Shown here: positions 1 to 17,738 of the stretch, piece after piece | Position numbering within the stretch: the first letter of the stretch is position 1 | How the letters are laid out: every line of letters begins with the position of its first letter | Virus record (IMG/VR): IMGVR_UViG_647533158_000002 | Direction: 5' to 3' (one strand) | Length of the DNA: 44,824 nt | DNA from: a virus | Taxonomy: Duplodnaviria; Heunggongvirae; Uroviricota; Caudoviricetes | Position numbers and translations under genes: made by a program | The notes under the pieces: generated by a model | The model's input: the letters and a program-made list of their open reading frames with translations, nothing else | Told to the model about the DNA's origin: nothing | The model's database searches: none

Positions 1-1164
1 TTACGCCTTCTTTATATCCTCCATAATTCCAGAGTGGGACATATTTGGGACATTATCACCAAAAATGTCGTCTATTTTCCTCGCATGCTCTGTCAAATGA
101 TTAGGCGCAAGGTGAGCATACCTACGAACCATTTCTATGGACTCCCATCCGCCCATTTCCTGAAGCACTGATAATGGGACGCCTGACTGAATCAGCCAGC
201 TTGCCCAGGTGTGTCTGAGGTCATGGAAACGGAAATCTTCAATTCCTGCACGACGACAAGCTGATAGCCATGATGTCTTGCTGTCGATGCGCATCTTCCT
301 GACCGCAGGCGTTGATGTTCCATCTGCTCGCTTAGCCGCCTTGGTATGTACAAACACCCATTTGTGATGCTTGCCTATTTGATCACGCAACACTTTACAG
401 GCGGTATCGTTCAGCGCCACACCAATGGCGCGGTTTGATTTGCTCTCTTCTGGATTCACCCAGGCAACTCGTCGCTGCATGTCGATTTGTTGCCATTCCA
501 GATTTATGATGTTCGACTTTCTCAGACCAGTTGCCAGCGCAAACTTGACGACAGATTTCAGTGGTTCGGGGCACTCATCAATAAGGCGTTTTGCTTCCTC
601 CTTTTCCAGCCATCTGACTCGCTTGTTTCTGACCGCTGGTATCTTGATGACAGGCGCTTTTTCCAGCCACTTCCAGTCGCGTTCTGCAGCACGGAGAATG
701 GCCTTTATCATGGCAAGATGCTTTGCCTTTGTCTGAGTTGATACTGGCTTTGGTTCATAAACAGGCGGTTCTTTACCTTTCCTGATGGCGGCCTGAACTT
801 TCTGTTTCCATATTTCTTTCGTCTTTCTGTTATGCATTCTGCTTACAGCAGAGTAAATCTTTGCCTCCGAGATATCTTTAAGCCTTATACCCTCAAAATG
901 TTCAAGCCAGAACTCAATCCGGCTTTTATCTGAATCGAGAGATTTTTTATCAGCTTTTTCCTCAAGCCATCTTAGGCAGGCCTCTTCAAAAGTGACATCA
1001 GGTAAATCCCCTAGCTTTTCTACTCGCCAGAGTTCTGCTTTTCGCTTGTCGTGCAACTCCTGAGCTTGCCGCTTGTCCTTTGTGCCAAGAGATTCCTTAA
1101 TTCGTTTCCCGCCCGGGAGCGAATACGAGGCATACCATATTTCATTTCTGCGGAAGAGTGACAT
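1..1164 (-). CDS. int: tyrosine-type site-specific integrase (lambdoid, DLP12-type Int)
   Basis: 387 aa ORF; C-terminal HDLRHT...RYAH tyrosine-recombinase motifs; ATG at 1162-1164 with upstream AGGAAAG RBS; stop is first codon of window; recognised from memory as DLP12-type integrase. Confidence 0.9.
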
Positions 1165-5167: not shown

Positions 5168-5911
5168 TTACAAATACTTTACATTTACCGCTATAAGAGA
5201 ATAATCGTCAGTCGGGCCTTTTGTCTCTATTCTTCGCATTAGGCTGGAGGCAAACCTTGATGCGGTTGACAATGTACGGTAAGAAAATCGTGGGCGTTGC
5301 TCCCAAAAGGTATGCGCGCCATCAGACATGATGAATAGAGATAGAACACCATCGTCAAGAGGAAGTTCATCTTTATCAATATTTATGACTTGATGTTGAA
5401 GGGGGATCTTGGCAGCAAGTGCAGTTGTAATAATATTTTTACCTTTTGCATTTTTGAGCTGTCGAGCTGTATAAATACCGCTATCTATCAACATTTGATG
5501 TTGAGTATGATCTGTTGTTAATTGGATTAGCTTATTTCCATTTTTTAAATAAACACGACAGTCACCTACATGTATAATTGTTAGACCTTGATTGTGAAGT
5601 AGGCACATTGTTAAAGTTGTAGCAGCAGATGCTAATTCTTTATCAACTGACGAAAGAGATGCCACCTTTTCTTGTAGGGTCTTAAGTAAGGATAAGACAT
5701 TGTCTTCATGAGTGAAGCTGTCTTTAATACTATACAAATGATTTATTACTGCTGCAGATGCTTCTTTTCCTCCTTTATAACCACCAACCCCATCAGCTAT
5801 AGCCATAAGATAACCATTTGGTGTTTGAAGTGGATAAAGCACGCTATCTTGATTTTCCCTGCCATTATGTTTTGGTACAGAAAATATGGATGATGAGAGT
5901 ATGCTAATCAT
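5168..5911 (-). CDS. PP2C-family (PPM) Ser/Thr protein phosphatase
   Basis: 247 aa; PP2C motifs visible: AIADGVGG, HVGDCRVY, LIDSG, MSDGAH; ATG overlaps the kinase TGA stop (ATGA) indicating translational coupling; AT-rich codon usage. Confidence 0.8.
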   Translation of the reverse strand: MISILSSSIFSVPKHNGRENQDSVLYPLQTPNGYLMAIADGVGGYKGGKEASAAVINHLYSIKDSFTHEDNVLSLLKTLQEKVASLSSVDKELASAATTLTMCLLHNQGLTIIHVGDCRVYLKNGNKLIQLTTDHTQHQMLIDSGIYTARQLKNAKGKNIITTALAAKIPLQHQVINIDKDELPLDDGVLSLFIMSDGAHTFWEQRPRFSYRTLSTASRFASSLMRRIETKGPTDDYSLIAVNVKYL

Positions 5912-6633
5912 AAGCGTTTCAACTCCAATTCCTCAAAGATCTGCTCTACGGTCAGGAATCTTTTGTTAAGTTGTCTATGCGTACATTTGTTTATTATATC
6001 ATCAAAACCATCAATATTTAATTCTTCAATTAAAATACCAATTGAATATATATCTGATTGTTTTGAATATCCGTTGAGGAAAACGTTGTAATCAAAGTAT
6101 TTAGGAGTAGCGGGGTATTGGCCAATTTGTGTTAATAGCTGTGTATTGGCATCTGGTGACACATTTTTTGCAAGGCCGAAGTCAGATAACTTATAAATTC
6201 CATCTTTAAATTTTAGTACATTTAGTGGTTTTATATCCCGATGAAGATATCCTTTCTTATGAATCCATCCGACGGCATTTAGTACCATTTTTACAATAGA
6301 GATTTTTTCAGCCTTTGTAAGAGTTCCACTTTTTATTTCTTCTTCAAGATTTGTTTCTGCTAGTTCCATTACGAACCAAGGCTGAGCATTCTGTAAGTGG
6401 CATATGAATATTTGGACAATATTAGTATGCAGGCATTCAGTTTGATATCTTACTTCTCGTTCAAATCTGGTAAAGAGTTCAGGATCTGTTGCATCAGGTC
6501 GTAAAATTTTTCTGGCATATAGACCACAAATTTTTCTTTGTGAGTTATATAACCTTATTTTTTCTACAAGGCCAAAACCGCCAGAACCAATTACTTCTAG
6601 GGGTTCTATTAGGTAATTCCCACGTTCTTCCAT
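5908..6633 (-). CDS. Hanks-type (eukaryotic-like) Ser/Thr protein kinase
   Basis: 241 aa; Gly-rich loop IGSGGFGLV, catalytic loop HRDIKPLN, DFG motif (LSDFGLAK); AAGGA RBS 7 nt upstream of ATG at 6633; AT-rich relative to flanks. Confidence 0.85.
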   Translation of the reverse strand: MEERGNYLIEPLEVIGSGGFGLVEKIRLYNSQRKICGLYARKILRPDATDPELFTRFEREVRYQTECLHTNIVQIFICHLQNAQPWFVMELAETNLEEEIKSGTLTKAEKISIVKMVLNAVGWIHKKGYLHRDIKPLNVLKFKDGIYKLSDFGLAKNVSPDANTQLLTQIGQYPATPKYFDYNVFLNGYSKQSDIYSIGILIEELNIDGFDDIINKCTHRQLNKRFLTVEQIFEELELKRL

Positions 6634-9378: not shown

Positions 9379-10076
9379 AAAACATCGCCGCACAGATGAT
9401 TAACTTTGACCGTGAGCAGATGCGTCGGATCGCCAACAACATGCCGGAACAGTACGACGAAAAGCCGCAGGTACAGCAGGTAGCGCAGATAATCAACGGT
9501 GTATTCAGCCAGTTACTGGCAACTTTCCCGGCGAGCCTGGCTAATCGTGACCAGAACGAACTGAACGAAATCCGCCGCCAGTGGGTTCTGGCTTTCCGGG
9601 AAAACGGGATCACCACGATGGAACAGGTGAGCGCCGGAATGCGTGTTGCCCGTCGGCAGAATAGACCATTTCTGCCATCACCCGGGCAGTTTGTTGCATG
9701 GTGCCGGGAAGAAGCATCCGTTACCGCCGGGCTGCCAAACGTCAGCGAGCTGGTTGATATGGTTTACGAGTATTGCCGGAAGCGTGGTCTGTATCCGGAT
9801 GCAGAGTCTTATCCGTGGAAATCAAACGCGCACTACTGGCTGGTTACCAACCTGTATCAGAACATGCGGGCCAATGCGTTGACTGACGCGGAATTACGGC
9901 GCAAGGCTGCCGATGAACTGTCCTGTATGACCGCGCGAATTAACCGTGGTGAGGCGATACCTGAACCAGTAAAACAACTTCCTGTCATGGGCGGTAGACC
10001 TCTAAATCGTGCACAGGCTCTGGCGAAGATCGCAGAAATCAAAGCTAAGTTCGGACTGAAAGGAGCAAGTGTATGA
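9375..10076 (+). CDS. P: replication protein P (DnaB helicase loader)
   Basis: 233 aa; MKNIAAQMINFDREQMRRIANNMPEQYDEKPQVQQVAQIINGVFSQLL... recognised as lambda P. Confidence 0.95.
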   Translation: MKNIAAQMINFDREQMRRIANNMPEQYDEKPQVQQVAQIINGVFSQLLATFPASLANRDQNELNEIRRQWVLAFRENGITTMEQVSAGMRVARRQNRPFLPSPGQFVAWCREEASVTAGLPNVSELVDMVYEYCRKRGLYPDAESYPWKSNAHYWLVTNLYQNMRANALTDAELRRKAADELSCMTARINRGEAIPEPVKQLPVMGGRPLNRAQALAKIAEIKAKFGLKGASV

Positions 10077-10375
10077 CGGGTAAAGAGGCAATTATTCATT
10101 ACCTGGGGACGCATAAGAGCTTCTGTGCACAGGACGTTGCCGCGGTAACAGGCGCAACCGTAACCAGCATAAATCAGGCTGCGGCTAAAATGGCGCGGGC
10201 AGGAATCCTGGTCGTTGATGGTAAGGTCTGGCGAACGGTGTATTACCGGTTCGCTACCAGAGAAGAACGGGAAGGAAAGGTGAGCACGAATCTGATTTTT
10301 AAGGAGTGTCGCCAGAGTGCCGCGATGAAACGGGTACTGAGGGTATATAAAAGAACATCAATGGGAACACAATGA
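10073..10375 (+). CDS. ren: Ren protein
   Basis: 100 aa; MTGKEAIIHYLGTHKSFCAQDVAAVTGATVTSINQAAAKMARAG... recognised as lambda Ren. Confidence 0.85.
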   Translation: MTGKEAIIHYLGTHKSFCAQDVAAVTGATVTSINQAAAKMARAGILVVDGKVWRTVYYRFATREEREGKVSTNLIFKECRQSAAMKRVLRVYKRTSMGTQ

Positions 10376-10442
10376 TGAAACAGGTGAGTTGAGTTCAAAC
10401 TGTAGTACAATTCTCTCCAGTTTGAACAGGAAAGAATATGCT

Positions 10443-10775
10443 ATGAACCCTTATATTTATCTTGGTGGTGCAATACTTGCAGAGGTCATTGGTACAACCT
10501 TAATGAAGTTTTCAGAAGGTTTTACACGGTTATGGCCATCTGTTGGTACAATTATTTGTTATTGTGCATCATTCTGGTTATTAGCTCAGACGCTGGCTTA
10601 TATTCCTACAGGGATTGCTTATGCTATCTGGTCAGGAGTCGGTATTGTCCTGATTAGCTTACTGTCATGGGGATTTTTCGGCCAACGGCTGGACCTGCCA
10701 GCCATTATAGGCATGATGTTGATTTGTGCCGGTGTGTTGGTTATTAATTTATTGTCACGAAGCACACCACATTAA
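10443..10775 (+). CDS. emrE: small multidrug resistance efflux transporter EmrE
   Basis: 110 aa from ATG 10443; MNPYIYLGGAILAEVIGTTLMKFSEGFTRLWPSVGTIICYCASFWLLAQ... recognised as EmrE; four hydrophobic helices. Confidence 0.9.
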   Translation: MNPYIYLGGAILAEVIGTTLMKFSEGFTRLWPSVGTIICYCASFWLLAQTLAYIPTGIAYAIWSGVGIVLISLLSWGFFGQRLDLPAIIGMMLICAGVLVINLLSRSTPH

Positions 10776-10804
10776 AATAATTTGTTTCTAAACGACTAAA
10801 ATAT

Positions 10805-10837
10805 GGAGGCTCTTATATTTATATGAGCCTCGTTTTA
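10805..10837 (+). terminator. rho-independent terminator after emrE
   Basis: GGAGGCTC...GAGCCTC inverted repeat followed by GTTTTAT. Confidence 0.5.
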
Positions 10838-11029
10838 TGCTTTTTGTTAATGTCTTTATTTTTTATGTATTCTTTTGTGCTTTCAAGATTATGGCGTAAG
10901 AAAATTGCAATACGATTATTGTTGTATATTCAAGATAATGTGACCTTAATTGTCTTTTTAAATAAAAATTAAACAAAAATTATATCCCACCACTAAGGTT
11001 TATAAAAGCATACGTTAGCAGGTGTCACC

Positions 11030-12556
11030 ATGAAAAAAGCCATAGCATATATGCGATTTTCATCACCAGGTCAGATGTCTGGCGACTCATTAAACCGACA
11101 GAGAAGACTTATTGCTGAATGGTTAAAGGTAAATAGTGATTATTATCTTGATACCATAACATATGAAGATTTAGGATTAAGTGCATTCAAAGGAAAGCAT
11201 GCACAATCAGGAGCTTTTTCGGAATTTTTAGATGCTATAGAGCATGGTTATATATTGCCAGGAACTACATTGTTAGTTGAAAGTCTGGACAGACTTTCAA
11301 GAGAAAAAGTCGGTGAAGCGATTGAACGTCTGAAATTGATTTTGAATCACGGTATTGATGTTATAACTCTTTGCGACAATACAGTCTATAATATTGACTC
11401 TTTGAATGAGCCATATTCATTAATAAAAGCCATACTTATAGCACAAAGGGCAAATGAAGAAAGCGAGATAAAGTCAAGTCGGGTTAAATTATCATGGAAG
11501 AAAAAACGGCAGGATGCACTGGAATCAGGTACGATTATGACGGCGTCTTGTCCGAGATGGCTCTCCTTAGATGACAAAAGAACGGCTTTTGTTCCAGACC
11601 CCGACAGGGTGAAAACTATTGAGCTAATTTTTAAACTCAGGATGGAAAGGCGCTCATTGAATGCAATAGCCAAGTATTTAAATGATCATGCTGTAAAGAA
11701 TTTCTCAGGAAAAGAAAGTGCATGGGGACCTTCTGTAATTGAAAAATTATTAGCGAATAAAGCTCTGATAGGTATATGCGTACCTTCATATCGTGCAAGA
11801 GGGAAAGGGATAAGTGAAATCGCTGGCTATTATCCCAGAGTCATATCAGATGATTTGTTTTACGCTGTACAGGAAATTCGGTTGGCACCTTTTGGTATTA
11901 GCAATAGTAGCAAGAATCCTATGCTAATAAATCTACTTCGAACAGTTATGAAGTGTGAGGCTTGTGGTAATACCATGATTGTTCATGCGGTATCTGGAAG
12001 TTTGCATGGCTATTATGTTTGTCCGATGAGAAGATTACATCGATGTGACAGGCCATCAATAAAAAGAGATTTGGTTGATTATAATATCATTAATGAATTG
12101 CTTTTTAATTGTAGCAAAATTCAACCAGTTGAAAACAAGAAAGATGCTAATGAAACTTTAGAGTTAAAAATTATTGAGCTTCAGATGAAAATTAATAATT
12201 TAATCGTTGCATTGTCTGTCGCGCCTGAAGTTACCGCTATAGCAGAGAAAATAAGACTATTAGATAAGGAATTACGAAGGGCTTCGGTATCATTGAAAAC
12301 TTTGAAGAGTAAAGGTGTAAATTCATTCAGTGATTTTTATGCTATTGACTTAACCAGTAAAAATGGACGAGAGTTATGCCGTACACTTGCCTATAAAACA
12401 TTCGAAAAAATCATAATTAATACGGATAATAAAACCTGTGATATCTATTTTATGAATGGCATTGTTTTTAAACACTATCCTTTAATGAAAGTAATATCCG
12501 CCCAGCAGGCGATAAGTGCTCTCAAATATATGGTTGATGGTGAGATTTATTTCTAA
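11030..12556 (+). CDS. ybcK: large serine recombinase (DLP12 YbcK-like)
   Basis: 508 aa; N-terminal resolvase-type domain (AIAYMRFSSPGQ... with active-site Ser region), C-terminal Cys cluster (CEACGN...C...C); AT-rich. Confidence 0.85.
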   Translation: MKKAIAYMRFSSPGQMSGDSLNRQRRLIAEWLKVNSDYYLDTITYEDLGLSAFKGKHAQSGAFSEFLDAIEHGYILPGTTLLVESLDRLSREKVGEAIERLKLILNHGIDVITLCDNTVYNIDSLNEPYSLIKAILIAQRANEESEIKSSRVKLSWKKKRQDALESGTIMTASCPRWLSLDDKRTAFVPDPDRVKTIELIFKLRMERRSLNAIAKYLNDHAVKNFSGKESAWGPSVIEKLLANKALIGICVPSYRARGKGISEIAGYYPRVISDDLFYAVQEIRLAPFGISNSSKNPMLINLLRTVMKCEACGNTMIVHAVSGSLHGYYVCPMRRLHRCDRPSIKRDLVDYNIINELLFNCSKIQPVENKKDANETLELKIIELQMKINNLIVALSVAPEVTAIAEKIRLLDKELRRASVSLKTLKSKGVNSFSDFYAIDLTSKNGRELCRTLAYKTFEKIIINTDNKTCDIYFMNGIVFKHYPLMKVISAQQAISALKYMVDGEIYF

Positions 12557-13020
12557 ATAATGATCTCGGATTTTAAGTTATGCTATGGTGATAAAGTGCA
12601 AGACAGAATTAATTATCTTTGACGAAACTTAATGGGTAATTACTTTGTTTGCTCCCACAAGCGAGTTTTGTACGGCTGTATTGGGGTAGTAAATGAGCTA
12701 TACAATCTTAATCATTTGTTAGGTGAGAACTCTTGGTCGCAGATTCAAATACTGAAAATACGTGACAAATTATTATGAGCAAAATGGTGTATGTCACGTA
12801 TTTTGAATGGTAGGTTAAAAAATAACACCGACTTTCGTAGGTATTACTAATAATAAAGCAGAGTTTTTAGATAGTATCAATGTGCTTTGTGTATATTGTG
12901 GCAAATAATTGGGTTGGGGGTACAATTGTGATTGCTTTTGCATGAACATTGCGCCTTTATGCATAATGAGATAAAGGAATATCAAATAAAATAACGATAG
13001 GTCATAACAAAGAGGTTTTT

Positions 13021-13572
13021 ATGAAAACACTTATCGTTTCAACTGTATTGGCATTCATAACATTTTCTGCGCAGGCTGCAGCATTTCAGGTCACTAGTAA
13101 TGAAATAAAAACAGGAGAGCAACTTACAACGTCTCATGTCTTTTCTGGATTTGGGTGTGAAGGTGGTAATACATCGCCCTCATTAACCTGGTCTGGTGTT
13201 CCTGAAGGTACCAAAAGCTTTGCCGTAACTGTATATGATCCAGATGCACCTACAGGCAGTGGTTGGTGGCATTGGACTGTTGTTAATATTCCAGCAACAG
13301 TAACATATTTGCCCGTTGATGCAGGGAGACGTGATGGAACAAAACTGCCGACTGGTGCTGTTCAAGGCCGAAATGATTTTGGCTATGCTGGGTTTGGTGG
13401 CGCATGTCCTCCTAAAGGAGATAAACCACATCATTACCAGTTTAAAGTATGGGCTCTAAAAACTGAAAAGATTCCTGTAGATTCTAACTCCAGCGGAGCG
13501 TTAGTTGGTTATATGCTTAATGCTAATAAAATCGCAACCGCTGAGATAACACCAGTTTATGAGATAAAGTAG
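13021..13572 (+). CDS. ybcL: PEBP/YbhB-family periplasmic protein (YbcL-like)
   Basis: 183 aa with signal peptide (MKTLIVSTVLAFITFSAQAAAF); PEBP-like motifs DPDAP and HHY. Confidence 0.85.
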   Translation: MKTLIVSTVLAFITFSAQAAAFQVTSNEIKTGEQLTTSHVFSGFGCEGGNTSPSLTWSGVPEGTKSFAVTVYDPDAPTGSGWWHWTVVNIPATVTYLPVDAGRRDGTKLPTGAVQGRNDFGYAGFGGACPPKGDKPHHYQFKVWALKTEKIPVDSNSSGALVGYMLNANKIATAEITPVYEIK

Positions 13573-13581
13573 GGTGAGAGT

Positions 13582-14379
13582 ATGCTGGCAAGAGGTAAGA
13601 CTAACTTAAAGATCGAAGAAATACGGATGCATAAACATCATGAGATTCATAGGGTTAAGCCTCTTATGCCAGCTTTGTGTCGTATCCGTCAGGGAAAGAA
13701 AGTTATCAATTGGGAGACGCATACTTTAACTGTTGATAATAATCAAATAATATTATTTCCTTGTGGTTATGAATTTTATATTGAGAATTATCCTGAAGCA
13801 GGGCTTTATCTTGCAGAAATGCTTTACTTACCCATTGATTTAATTGAGAGTTTCCAAAAACTTTATACGGTAACTGATCAAATACGTAACAAAACAAGTT
13901 TATTTTTACCTCAGAATCCTGAGTTAATATATTGTTGGGAGCAACTAAAAACATCTGTTTCCCGAGGCTTCTCAACTAAAATTCAGGAGCACTTAGCAAT
14001 GGGCGTTCTACTTTCGTTAGGAGTGAATCATGTTAATCATTTACTTTTATCATATAGTAAACAATCATTGATAAGTCGTTGTTATAACCTGCTGCTATCC
14101 GAACCCGGCACAAAATGGACAGCAAACAAGGTTGCTCGATATCTCTACATTTCTGTTTCTACATTACATCGCCGTCTAGCAAGCGAGGGGGTAAGTTTCC
14201 AAAGTATACTGGACGATGTGAGGTTAAATAATGCGTTGTCTGCTATACAAACGACGGTAAAACCTATAAGCGAGATTGCCAGAGAAAATGGTTATAAGTG
14301 TCCTTCTCGTTTTACTGAAAGATTTCATAATCGTTTTAATATAACACCAAGAGAGATAAGAAAAGCTTCCAGAGAGTAA
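13582..14379 (+). CDS. ybcM: AraC-family transcriptional regulator (YbcM-like)
   Basis: 265 aa; C-terminal AraC-type HTH region; start codon choice (13582 vs 13627) uncertain. Confidence 0.75.
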
Positions 14380-14593
14380 AAGTGTTTTAAGAAGGAGCAA
14401 TTCTATCGATTTTGATTTTGGGAAATCAACACGGCATAATTATGTCACCGGAGCCTGAACAACTCCGGTGACTTCTGCGCTAAACGGGGACGTTTATGCG
14501 CACATACAATCCAAACTCTCTTCTCCCTTCACAGATGCAGAAATGCACCTGCAATTCTTTGCATCTAGCGTTTGACCTCTGCGGAGGTGAAGC

Positions 14594-15049
14594 GTGAACC
14601 TCTCACAAGACGGCATCAAATTACATCGCGGCAACTTCACCGCTATCGGTCGGCAGATCCAGCCTTATCTGGAGGAGGGCAAATGCTTTCGCATGGTGCT
14701 TAAACCGTGGCGTGAGAAACGCAGTCTTTCCCAGAATGCACTCAGCCACATGTGGTACAGCGAAATCAGTGAATACCTCATCAGCAGGGGTAAAACGTTC
14801 GCCACTCCAGCTTGGGTAAAAGATGCTCTCAAACACACATATCTCGGTTATGAAACCAAAGACCTGGTTGATGTCGTAACCGGTGATATCACCACTATCC
14901 AGTCGTTACGCCATACCTCCGATCTTGATACCGGAGAGATGTATGTCTTCCTGTGTAAGGTTGAAGCCTGGGCGGTGAATATTGGCTGCCACCTGACTAT
15001 TCCGCAGAGCTGCGAGTTCCAGCTGCTCCGCGACAAGCAGGAGGCGTAA
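14594..15049 (+). CDS. ybcN: nin-region protein YbcN-like
   Basis: 151 aa ORF from GTG 14594 with GGAGG RBS 5 nt upstream; recognised from memory as DLP12 YbcN. Confidence 0.75.
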
Positions 15050-15219
15050 TGGCTACACCGCTTATTCGTGTCATGAACGGACACATCTACAGAGTATCAA
15101 ATCGTCGTAAGCGTAAGCCTGAGCTGAAGCCATCCGAAATACCAACACTGCTCGGATATACCGCTAGCCTGGTTGATAAAAAATGGTTGCGACTGGCAGC
15201 AAGGAGGAATCATGGCTGA
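15049..15219 (+). CDS. ninE: NinE-like small basic protein
   Basis: 56 aa [32 protein letters not shown]...; ATG overlaps ybcN stop (TAATG); below the ORF-track size cutoff, called by hand. Confidence 0.6.
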   Translation: MATPLIRVMNGHIYRVSNRRKRKPELKPSEIPTLLGYTASLVDKKWLRLAARRNHG

Positions 15220-15502
15220 TTTGAGAAAAGCAGCGCGTGGTCGGGAATGCCAGGTAAGAATCCCTGGCGTATGTAATGGCAATTCTGAAACGTCTGTACT
15301 GGCACATATCCGGCTGGCTGGATTGTGCGGTACCGGTATCAAACCGCCAGACCTGATTGCCACCATTGCATGTTCTGCCTGCCACGACGAAATCGACCGC
15401 CGCACACATTTTGTCGATGCTGCATATGCAAAAGAATGCGCGCTGGAAGGTATGGCGAGAACACAGGTTATCTGGCTGAAAGAGGGGGTTATTAAGGCGT
15501 GA
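15212..15502 (+). CDS. ybcO: nin-region protein YbcO-like (putative nuclease)
   Basis: 96 aa from ATG 15212 preceded by AGGAGG; Cys/His-rich (CQVRIPGVC...CSACHDE). Confidence 0.75.
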
Positions 15503-15861
15503 ATACCTACAGTATCACATTACCCTGGCCTCCGAGCAATAATCGCTATTACCGCCATAATCGCGGGCGCACGCACGTCAGTGCAGAGGGGCAGGCATAC
15601 CGCGATAACGTCGCCCGAATCATTAAAAACGCAATGCTGGATATCGGCCTGGCTATGCCTGTGAAAATCCGCATTGAGTGCCACATGCCGGATCGCCGTC
15701 GCCGTGACCTGGATAATCTGCAAAAAGCCGCTTTTGACGCACTCACCAAAGCAGGTTTCTGGCTGGATGATGCTCAGGTCGTTGATTACCGCGTTGTGAA
15801 GATGCCTGTTACCAAAGGTGGGAGGCTGGAACTGACCATCACCGAAATGGGGAATGAATGA
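15499..15861 (+). CDS. rusA: Holliday junction resolvase RusA
   Basis: 120 aa; [38 protein letters not shown]... recognised as RusA. Confidence 0.95.
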
Positions 15862-15998
15862 TGTTTGAGTTTTATATGGCAGAACTTCTTCGCCACCGCT
15901 GGGGGCATCTGCGCTTATATCGTTTCCCCGGTTCTGTTTTGACCGATTACCGAATACTGAAGAATTACGCCAAAACCCTGACAGGAGCAGGAGTATGA
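15858..15998 (+). CDS. ylcG: small nin-region protein YlcG-like
   Basis: 46 aa [26 protein letters not shown]... overlapping rusA stop; too short for ORF track, called by hand. Confidence 0.45.
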
Positions 15999-16083
15999 AG
16001 TCAGAGATAACAATCAACTAATACTGTTTTGTTGATTTTTGCTTGTAATTGGCGTTCTGGTCTGATTTTTGTGGAGTAAGTTG

Positions 16084-16467
16084 ATGCGTGATATTCAGAT
16101 GGTTCTTGAGCGTTGGGGAGCGTGGGCGGCTAATAATCATGAAGATGTGACCTGGTCGTCCATTGCCGCCGGTTTTAAGGGATTAATTACTTCAAAAGTA
16201 AAATCTCGCCCGCAATGTTGTGACGATGACGCGATGATTATTTGCGGGTGCATGGCCCGTCTGAAAAAGAACAACAGCGATTTGCACGATTTATTAGTAG
16301 ATTATTATGTAGTCGGTATGACATTCATGTCACTAGCAGGTAAGCATTGCTGCTCTGATGGTTATATCGGGAAAAGGTTACAGAAGGCTGAGGGCATAAT
16401 TGAAGGGATGTTAATGGCATTAGATATCCGGTTAGAGATGGATATCGTTGTTAATAACTCTAATTAA
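16084..16467 (+). CDS. quuD: late-gene antiterminator Q (QuuD / phage 82-21-type)
   Basis: ATG 16084 ([17 protein letters not shown]...) preceded by GGAGTAAG; Cys-rich region; position upstream of lysis cassette. Confidence 0.85.
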
Positions 16468-16477
16468 TATGCCAATT

Positions 16478-16518
16478 GTTTACTAAAAATTATTAAAAAT
16501 GGGGCGTTGCAACGCCCC
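16478..16518 (-). terminator. terminator hairpin downstream of nmpC (palindromic, possibly bidirectional)
   Basis: Perfect palindrome GGGGCGTTGCAACGCCCC at 16501-16518; T-run follows on the minus strand. Confidence 0.5.
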
Positions 16519-16655
16519 CAAAAATAAAGGGTAATATATAACAGAAGGTTTATATAGTTAGAAGCAAGGTTGTGCTCCTAAAGGAAGTGGCTTGAGGGAG
16601 CCACTTATATGTTGGGGAGGCAAAGCCTCCCGCAACATATCTTTTAGTAATCAAA

Positions 16656-17738
16656 TTAGAACTGGTAAACCATACCTACAGCAACGATATCATCGGTAGC
16701 AACGCCAGATGCTTTCGTGAAATCGCTCTTATCAATCAGGTTGATTTTGTAATCAACAAAAGTGGACATATTTTTGTTGAAGTAATAGGTTGCACCTACA
16801 TCAATATATTCAACCAGGTCCTGATCACCCCACGCACCCAAGTCTTTTCCTTTAGATTGCAGGTAAGCAACGGACGGACGCAGACCGAAGTCGAACTGAT
16901 ATTGTGCAACTACTTCGAAGTTTTGTGCTTTGTTGGCAATATGGTTATTACCAAAAACAGTCATGTTCTGGGTTTCAGAATAGGTGGTAGCCAGATAGAT
17001 GTTGTTCGCATCATATTTCAGACCAGCTGCCCATACTTCAGCATTTTGACCAGATGCATTCAGGCTGTTGTTACCGTAGATAACCTGATTATTAGTGCGG
17101 TCAGATTTAGCATAGGTTGCACCTACACCGAATCCTTCATACTCATAAGTAGTGGAGAAACCGAAACCATCACCATTAGCTTCAGTTACGTCAGTGCGGT
17201 CATTTTTACCCTGATACTGAGCAGCAAAGTTCAGACCATCAACCAGACCAAAGAAGTCGTTGTTACGATAAGTTGCAACACCAGTGGTGCGACCAGTCAT
17301 GAACACATCTGTTTGGGTCCAGGTATCGCCACCGAATTCTGGCAGAACGTCAGTCCACGCACCGATGTCATATGCTACACCGTAGTTACGGCCGTAATCG
17401 ATTGAGCCGTAGTCCCCGAATTTCAGGCCTGCAAATGCAAGACGGGTTTTGTCTTTGGAGGAGCCTTGAGATTCAGCGCGGTTGCCTTTGAATTCATATT
17501 CCCACTGACCGAAACCAGTCAGTTGATCGTTGATTTGGGTTTCACCTTTGAAGCCAAGACGGGCATAAGTAGTATCACCATCATCTGCATCATTAGAGGA
17601 GAAGTAGTGCTTGGCATTAACTTTCCCATATAGATCCAGCTTGTTACTGTCTTTATTATAAATTTCAGCTGCCTGAGCAGACATCGCCATCAGTACTGAT
17701 GCAGCTACAGCAGAAATTGCCACTGTTAATTTTTTCAT
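16656..17738 (-). CDS. nmpC: outer-membrane general porin NmpC (OmpC/OmpF family)
   Basis: Signal peptide [23 protein letters not shown], beta-barrel porin sequence ending in YQF; start set at ATG 17738 rather than upstream alternative start. Confidence 0.9.

Follow-up and report, generated by a model that had tools for sequence, protein, structure and literature searches.

The defective prophage DLP12 of Escherichia coli K-12 carries the genes emrE, ybcK, ybcL and ybcM in a row, followed by ylcH and ybcN, and this arrangement is part of the textbook annotation of the K-12 genome. The same genes, in the same order and with the same sequence, are present in the Caudoviricetes record IMGVR_UViG_647533158_000002, a stretch of 44,824 nucleotides (nt) called the window below, where they form an AT-rich block between ren and ybcN and are likewise accompanied by the small open reading frames (ORFs) ylcJ and ylcH. 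The block is already known DLP12-type cargo. Unlike the defective DLP12, however, the window appears to be an intact relative, with full-length O, P and ren genes, a tyrosine integrase (1-1164, minus strand; PF00589), and head and tail genes.

Two other kinds of described system bear on this locus. The hotspots of P2 and P4 phages (PMC9122126) and the defence hotspots of prophages (PMC9519451) combine conserved flanks, swappable unrelated cargo and atypical composition, and all three features recur at the locus studied here, where the alternative cargo includes BstA and PD-lambda-1; unlike in those hotspots, the cargo in this window is not recognizably defensive, as judged by PADLOC. The second gene of the block, ybcK, encodes a protein that resembles the large serine integrases of phiC31, Bxb1, A118/LI and TP901-1 in its predicted catalytic domain, recombinase domain, zinc ribbon and coiled coil and in its set of serine, arginine and aspartate residues. 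SprA of SPbeta and TnpX of Tn4451 are further large serine integrases of comparable architecture.

On balance, the evidence favours reading the block as composite moron cargo of a lambdoid phage of the DLP12/phage 82 type, in which ybcK is probably a captured serine-integrase cassette and not the mobilizer of the island.

An AT-rich block of DLP12 type

The ORF list and a Pfam scan place four genes in the block, all on the + strand:

10443..10775, + strand: emrE, predicted SMR efflux pump of 110 amino acids with a full-length family domain (PF00893, E 2e-35)
11030..12556, + strand: ybcK, predicted large serine recombinase of 508 amino acids (PF00239, PF07508 and PF13408)
13021..13572, + strand: ybcL, predicted secreted PEBP-family protein with a signal-peptide-like N terminus (PF01161, E 3e-42)
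13582..14379, + strand: ybcM, predicted AraC-type regulator (PF12833, E 1e-16; PF00165), starting 9 nt past ybcL

The start codon of emrE is the ATG at 10443; the TTG at 10389, where the first-pass annotation began the block, lies upstream of it in the same frame. Family domains assign EmrE, YbcL and YbcM to the SMR, PEBP and AraC families, respectively.

A first-pass annotation of the window, made from the sequence alone, had recognized DLP12 in this gene combination and had described a strongly AT-rich accessory block between ren and ybcN. Both observations were correct. Identity to K-12 MG1655 is 99.9% over 10376-12630 and 99.8% over 12560-13020, and the region 10000-14800 has exact counterparts (100% identity) in several E. 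coli chromosomes and in PhiR68_2, an inducible phage whose record gives E. coli ECOR13 as its host. At least 80% of this region is present in 668 of 5,426 complete E. coli genomes. The break in composition is real as well: the GC content of 10376-14410 is 36.3%, compared to 50.9% in the remaining window, and no other 4-kb stretch of the window has a GC content as low. Two long spacers, one of 254 nt at 27% GC and the other of 464 nt at 33% GC, lie within the block.

A cargo slot between ren and ybcN

The boundaries of the block were set by BLAST searches against five sister phages, and they coincide with the edges of a slot that holds different genes in different phages. The flanking features are as follows:

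10336..10375, + strand: left mosaic boundary, formed by a variant ren 3′ end
14411..14593, + strand: conserved right flank, common to all cargo variants and followed by ybcN
14496..14597, + strand: ylcH, small ORF in the right flank

On the left, homology to sister phages stops at 10335 or 10348, and alignment places this breakpoint in the final codons of ren. On the right, the breakpoint falls at 14410/14411, 31 nt beyond the ybcM stop codon, in every sister-phage comparison. A third, internal breakpoint at 12597, about 40 nt past the ybcK stop codon, parts phages that are alike in emrE-ybcK from one another downstream.

Between these flanks PhiR30_1 carries an acyltransferase and a lipoprotein, PhiR5_1 carries small ORFs and Rha, and PhiR26_1 carries PD-lambda-1 (locus L005, 2125-3627) and Rha. 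Other phages retain emrE-ybcK and differ in what follows: 4A7 encodes a secreted esterase of the BD-FAE type (L002, 4908-5951), Turner has small ORFs, and L154 carries the abortive-infection gene BstA (PADLOC, E 4e-121). Further cargo ORFs of 260, 168, 118, 105 and 90 amino acids have no family match.

With its conserved flanks, alternative unrelated cargo, atypical composition, and terminator and promoter-like signals of its own, the locus is a moron, or accessory-gene, hotspot. The first-pass annotation had supposed that a single four-gene island was inserted here and had looked to prophages lacking it for exact boundaries and a target duplication. That comparison yielded the boundaries, but neither an empty site nor flanking repeats: the slot is filled with cargo in all relatives examined, and phages without ybcK have the same right boundary. 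A query consisting of the joined flanks found no directly joined ren/ybcN junction in phages or E. coli genomes; no phage record had both flanks in one place, and among the E. coli matches listed the flank pieces are separated by about 775-810 nt, with other cargo between them.

The right flank opens with a promoter-like element, TTGATT-17-CATAAT, that overlaps the palindrome TTGATTT/AAATCAA, and it continues with a hairpin at 14444-14472 that folds strongly (z = -4.6) and has no T-run. In PhiR26_1 a second copy of the flank, 80% identical (L005, 3870-4024), precedes another cargo module, as if the element were a module linker or start signal. The conserved flanks and this second copy indicate a cargo slot with conserved linkers rather than a simple insertion site. 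We did not find the ren-ninB slot described as a named hotspot in a literature search. Sister phages carry known anti-phage genes in this slot, so new ones may be sought there.

Separate histories of ybcK and its neighbours

The make-up of the block was examined in 83 loci, comprising 80 IMG/VR contigs that encode YbcK at 97-100% identity and three phage loci. The order and orientation of P-ren-emrE-ybcK are the same in every locus that extends far enough upstream. Downstream of ybcK, the sequences up to the 14411 boundary fall into 11 clusters, two of which consist of a single contig each. These two IMG/VR contigs, L117 and L170, exceed a common type by exactly 1,336 nt and probably derive from it by insertion; the end sequence of the insert looks like IS2.

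The ybcL-ybcM form, which we call type a, is found in 29 loci, and emrE-ybcK is followed by about nine other cargo types elsewhere. The type b forms have about 420 nt in common past ybcK, whose coding content is limited to P22_AR_C, the C-terminal domain of a Rha/antirepressor protein; beyond this point they diverge into an esterase, BstA, a 260-amino-acid cysteine-rich protein, a 168-amino-acid protein and others. Compared to PhiR5_1, the type b forms carry emrE-ybcK and about 125 nt in place of everything between the 3′ end of ren and mid-rha. This substitution truncates rha, which is the product expected of illegitimate or homologous exchange.

Searches of 10376-12630 against E. coli genomes identified 1,399 genomes with the whole stretch. 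A further 2,263 records have a best match of 90-95% identity, and the matches sampled among them cover only 10378-10781, corresponding to emrE and its leader. One such locus, from an ST131 genome (L178, 5989-8141), was inspected. It runs from fliE through emrE-ybcL-ybcM and the right flank to an IS200-family transposase with pseudogenes and then yedF, with homology to 10367-10782 and 12866-14596, and with 4 nt replacing 10783-12865. The sequence missing from this locus defines a segment with these contents:

10783..12865, + strand: ybcK-bearing segment of 2,083 base pairs (bp), absent from the emrE-ybcL-ybcM locus at fliE-yedF
10806..10835, + strand: terminator-like hairpin followed by a T-run, directly past emrE and within the ybcK segment
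10823..10972, + strand: ylcJ, hydrophobic small ORF of 49 amino acids (RefSeq annotation)
12755..12804, either strand: palindrome of 50 bp between ybcK and ybcL, in the segment's tail; its 13-bp arms match perfectly around a non-symmetric centre of 24 nt

Besides the terminator-like hairpin, ylcJ and ybcK, the segment comprises a 309-nt tail that includes the palindrome. To its left, the sequence past the emrE stop ends in AATAATT at 10782, and the sequence from 12866 onward begins TTTAGATAG. Inspection of the junctions revealed no target duplication, shared core or mutual symmetry at the segment ends. A 13-nt repeat at the left junction (10780) and the ybcK stop (12545) was considered as a recombination core and was rejected because the empty site does not have the form B-core-B′.

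From the match pattern, emrE-ybcL-ybcM without ybcK is probably present at a fliE-yedF remnant in about 2,260 E. coli genomes. The locus has the appearance of a highly reduced prophage remnant that keeps only these three genes and the right-flank module; given that number of genomes, most E. coli would carry emrE there and not in DLP12. In E. albertii a tyrosine integrase is followed by emrE-ybcL-ybcM adjoining oppC. In Salmonella and Cedecea, ybcL and ybcM stand alone as a pair, and the called coordinates put the two genes at the same spacing.

The four genes are thus not one unit, as the first-pass annotation had implied. The occurrence of ybcL-ybcM alone and of the trio without ybcK indicates that ybcL-ybcM is an old unit, that emrE was joined to it within Escherichia, and that ybcK lies on a distinct segment. 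The emrE-ybcL spacers at the fliE locus and in E. albertii provide an empty counterpart of this segment. Insertion of the segment would be more likely than its deletion in the other lineage, because of how the YbcK family behaves elsewhere (see below). These findings imply that it would be wrong to handle the four genes as a single mobile island: cargo and recombinase have separate histories, a point to bear in mind wherever emrE or ybcL is counted as resistance or virulence cargo borne by a phage.

The same comparisons make it very improbable that the four genes form an integrative element, with ends at about 10389 and 14379, whose integrase is YbcK. A recombinase does lie inside an AT-rich block with sharp boundaries, but the genes are separable in both directions, with the trio occurring without ybcK and ybcK without ybcL-ybcM. 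Moreover, the boundaries are shared with unrelated cargo, the slot has no empty form, and terminal repeats are at chance level. The position of ybcK is also internal, whereas the recombinase gene of the related hofB island is terminal.

YbcK is a complete and constrained recombinase

By its domain order and predicted structure, YbcK is classed as a large serine recombinase (LSR), as the first-pass annotation had called it. The catalytic domain (PF00239, E 5.5e-19) contains R9, the catalytic serine S11, D87, R88 and R91, and the zinc ribbon contains C309, C312, C331 and C339. All of these residues are invariant in 19 homologues, the most distant of which are 29% identical, and in 36 allelic proteins. 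An AlphaFold2 model with a mean pLDDT of 80 comprises the catalytic domain, a long E-helix, the recombinase domain, the zinc ribbon, a helical hairpin at residues 368-430 that is a predicted coiled coil, and an extra C-terminal domain at residues 444-508. Foldseek matches this model to full-length serine integrases, including those of phiC31, Bxb1 and a Listeria LSR (E 4e-18 to 1e-10), and the protein falls in the PHROGs integrase family phrog_95 (E 4e-120); a phmmer search of PDB sequences gave no match. Unlike integrases of the phiC31 and Bxb1 type, YbcK has the additional C-terminal domain, is not encoded at a prophage end and is not the integrase of the phage.

The gene is intact in 81 of 82 copies. 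Compared to the window allele, its ratio of nonsynonymous to synonymous substitution rates (dN/dS) is 0.064-0.077 over synonymous divergence (dS) of up to 0.18. P, an essential replication gene, has a similar range (0.046-0.082), and ren and ybcN are less tightly constrained. The suggestion of the first-pass annotation that ybcK might be the remnant of an element integrated within the prophage is therefore correct in part. The gene does lie on a separately acquired segment and belongs to a family that includes island integrases; however, the invariant residues, the intact copies and the low dN/dS indicate that it is not a decaying remnant.

A related explanation is that ybcK is a functionless leftover of a once-integrated element that is carried along by hitch-hiking. 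In keeping with this view, ybcK always occupies the same position, neither substrate sites nor products were found, the phage encodes another integrase, and ybcK is silenced in K-12 (PMC4150792, PMC10954037). Nevertheless, a dN/dS of about 0.07, the near absence of disrupted copies and the invariance of catalytic and zinc-binding residues are difficult to reconcile with loss of function, and both induced phages and free-living ones, 4A7 and Turner among them, still carry the gene. We regard this explanation as unlikely.

From conservation, and from that only, we infer that YbcK is still a working integrase that acts on a site pair of its own. A search of the literature for a study of YbcK function returned nothing specific. 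The gene is a clear orphan: present in about one quarter of complete E. coli genomes, it encodes a complete serine integrase and is under strong purifying selection.

Relatives of YbcK travel as compact cassettes

Homologues of YbcK at 36-61% identity are found across Enterobacterales. The hofB gene of Serratia fonticola is split at the motif GHLVL|STLHTN by an island of about 7.3 kb (L022, ~9920-17300), with the LSR gene at the island end and reading inward. The crossover is located about 78 nt before the ATG of the LSR, around a shared CTA, and the reconstructed arms of the phage-type attachment site (attP) form an imperfect inverted repeat that matches at 10 of 14 positions. The same conserved LSR unit in Mixta abuts a gspE-type gene in a type II secretion cluster. 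Such units share 91-96% nucleotide identity across four genera (L021-L024, from Mixta, Serratia, Leclercia and Rahnella). The cargo of the islands in L021 and L022 includes two paralogous proteins of about 300 amino acids and a small serine recombinase.

The LSRs of these hofB/gspE islands belong to the same family as YbcK (39% identity, similar length and the same invariant residues), and they too have variable cargo to their right. The difference is that target halves, a crossover and an attP-like inverted repeat can be reconstructed for the hofB islands, whereas none of these can be reconstructed for ybcK. Serine integrases are valued for genome engineering, and relatives with reconstructable attachment (att) sites offer a route to the substrate of YbcK.

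Other family members are located at prophage ends, past a tail-fibre assembly gene and adjoining host DNA, and one, in an Atlantibacter-type assembly, is beside ssrA. In L173 and L008 an Atlantibacter-type lambdoid prophage has the order P ... SIR2 ... LSR-KGG-DinI-DUF1367-NinG-Q, and a Pantoea prophage with a family LSR in the early/nin region has its own tyrosine integrase. In three subgroups, the homology between related copies in different contexts starts 65-78 nt before the ATG. This shared starting point, along with the reconstructable islands, argues that members of the YbcK family are true integrases that travel as compact cassettes, as judged from the sequences compared.

In L173 the LSR-KGG-DinI unit is flanked by a direct repeat of 229 bp (9623-9851 and 12609-12831, 83% identical) that corresponds to the 5′ part of the DUF1367 gene. 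The upstream copy of this gene is truncated and the downstream copy is complete, which could be the footprint of a target-restoring element. In a lambdoid prophage of Candidatus Pantoea alvi (L027, 9256-12859), an inverted LSR is situated between a complete P gene and a diverged second C-terminal P fragment.

The leader and expression of ybcK

Upstream of ybcK is an unusually constant sequence:

10896..11029, + strand: conserved non-coding patch of 134 nt upstream of ybcK

About 2% of sites in this patch differ between the type a and type b sequences compared, against about 13% at ybcK third codon positions and in 10783-10895. Any cis-acting site for YbcK would most probably be located in these 134 nt, by analogy with family members whose crossovers lie about 65-78 nt before the start codon.

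In K-12 a Rho/NusG-dependent terminator in the ybcK upstream untranslated region holds expression down (PMC4150792), and ybcK DNA is a polyphosphate-dependent binding site for Hfq (PMC10954037). The conserved patch is part of the same untranslated region as the published terminator, a comparison made by region and not by coordinates. In lambda, N-modified transcription from pR reads through such terminators. On this basis we infer that YbcK would be made during infection or induction, and only from N-antiterminated read-through from pR.

Search for YbcK action on the block

The first-pass annotation had also proposed that YbcK might mobilize or invert the island, possibly by acting on flanking inverted repeats. 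No trace of such action was found. Among the 83 loci there is no inversion or permutation, with all segments in the same order and orientation, and no inversion, excision or alternative junction at ybcK is present in about 1,400 E. coli genomes. The upstream junction of ybcK is intact in 1,403 of 1,406 genomes, and only three of 678 genomes depart from an intact, co-linear spacer between ybcK and ybcL, in which the palindrome lies. Two candidate alternative junctions, H141 and H165, both adjoin a copy of the insertion sequence IS1 and were read as IS1-associated deletions. Direct and inverted repeats around the block or around ybcK are limited to short matches at chance level. A scan of the upstream patch for dyad symmetry, which is a sequence test of low power, gave no signal above shuffled controls.

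Two candidate sites were discarded. The 50-bp palindrome folds well on either strand (z -4.0 and -4.8), but it is restricted to the ybcL-ybcM form and is absent in type b phages, no genome breaks there, and no comparable site is found near family members. A likeness to the arms of the hofB-type attP ('GATTA..GTTGTA' in both, by hand comparison) is indistinguishable from chance in AT-rich DNA.

These results also bear on the idea that YbcK is an invertase that flips a promoter or gene segment, causing phase variation of emrE or ybcL-ybcM. Serine recombinases do include invertases, and the 50-bp palindrome lies between ybcK and ybcL. Yet the 83 loci have one orientation, the spacer is co-linear in 675 of 678 genomes, no inverted-repeat pair brackets a segment, and the protein has the zinc ribbon and coiled coil of an LSR rather than the architecture of the Hin/Gin type. 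This explanation is the most improbable of those considered.

The main competing explanation is that ybcK and the DNA downstream of it constitute a present or recent small serine-integrase island, or cassette platform, in the nin region, with attL in the upstream patch and attR near 14411. YbcK would then be responsible for the diversity of cargo on its right. Several observations are consistent with such a platform. A family LSR is located at the left end of its island and reads inward, with the crossover 65-78 nt before the ATG and homology starting there in three subgroups, and the non-coding patch from -134 to -1 is conserved in ybcK. Also, the ybcK alleles ahead of about nine distinct cargo types encode proteins no more than 3% apart, the right boundary at 14410/14411 is sharp, and the repeat around the LSR-KGG-DinI unit of L173 fits the same scheme. 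However, the 14411 boundary is common to phages without ybcK, and the other breakpoints are scattered (~12597-12630, and +282, +338, +420 and +490 past ybcK), with one of them truncating rha. Furthermore, the patch contains no dyad-symmetric site above chance, and no excised or empty forms joining emrE to the right flank were seen. We consider a platform of this kind quite unlikely.

A broader proposal is that YbcK-family integrases drive very small piggy-back islands that specifically colonize conserved host genes (hofB/gspE) and also accessory slots of temperate phages, in the nin region or at the tail-fibre end, and that the DLP12 copy is active. We regard this as speculative and doubtful. 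If true, YbcK would give the phage a second recombination route that is independent of Int, or would capture the variable cargo to its right.

The account that we prefer, in which ybcK is captured cargo, would involve the following steps. An old two-gene unit, encoding a secreted PEBP protein (YbcL) and its putative AraC-type regulator (YbcM), would have been joined to emrE in Escherichia, and a separate segment of 2.08 kb (10783-12865) would have split the emrE-ybcL spacer. Slot cargo would be exchanged between related phages by homologous or illegitimate recombination, both at the flanks (P/ren on the left, and the promoter, hairpin, ylcH and ybcN on the right) and at scattered internal points, apparently not by YbcK. 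The recombinase itself would be a captured serine-integrase cassette that purifying selection keeps intact. Of this account, the anatomy, the composite origin, the selection on ybcK and the lack of rearrangements are shown by the sequences, and the present activity of YbcK, its time of expression and the place of any cis-acting site are deductions.

Several points weigh against this account. The fliE-locus and window copies are about 10% diverged, and a precise deletion in the lineage of the fliE locus could also explain the difference between them. The segment ends lack dyad symmetry and a target duplication, and the count of loci without ybcK is based on one inspected genome and the match pattern of the rest. 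The searches turned up neither an att site or partner site for YbcK nor a product of recombination by it. Finally, strong constraint at a fixed position without a footprint in 1,400 genomes could mean that YbcK has a function other than integration.

Other features of the block and the window

A further structured element precedes emrE:

10393..10427, + strand: hairpin or palindrome with 10-13-bp arms in the emrE leader (fold z-score -1.9)

It is the same in the type a and type b sequences compared and has one mismatch in the ybcK-less copy at the fliE locus. In the terminator-like hairpin past emrE, the substitutions found in phage 4A7 retain pairing by means of G-U wobble. PADLOC gave no hits among the four block proteins, Rfam gave none in 9500-16500, and counts of promoter-like sites are not above chance.

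The published record on functions of the cargo is limited. EmrE is a well-studied efflux pump. YbcL is reportedly linked to neutrophil migration, as paper titles suggest. According to PMC8249747, YbcM controls the operon to which it belongs; a meeting abstract reports that it represses motility and favours biofilm formation (PMC9966839).

The window contains a second AT-rich slot (about 35% GC) at 5168-6633 on the - strand, directly to the left of a cI-like repressor gene. It encodes a Ser/Thr protein kinase (5908-6633), for which the best PADLOC matches are mad6 and PD-T4-6, and also Stk2, and a PP2C phosphatase (5168-5911). By their sequences, the two are a candidate anti-phage pair. Lambda has rexAB in this position beside its repressor gene.

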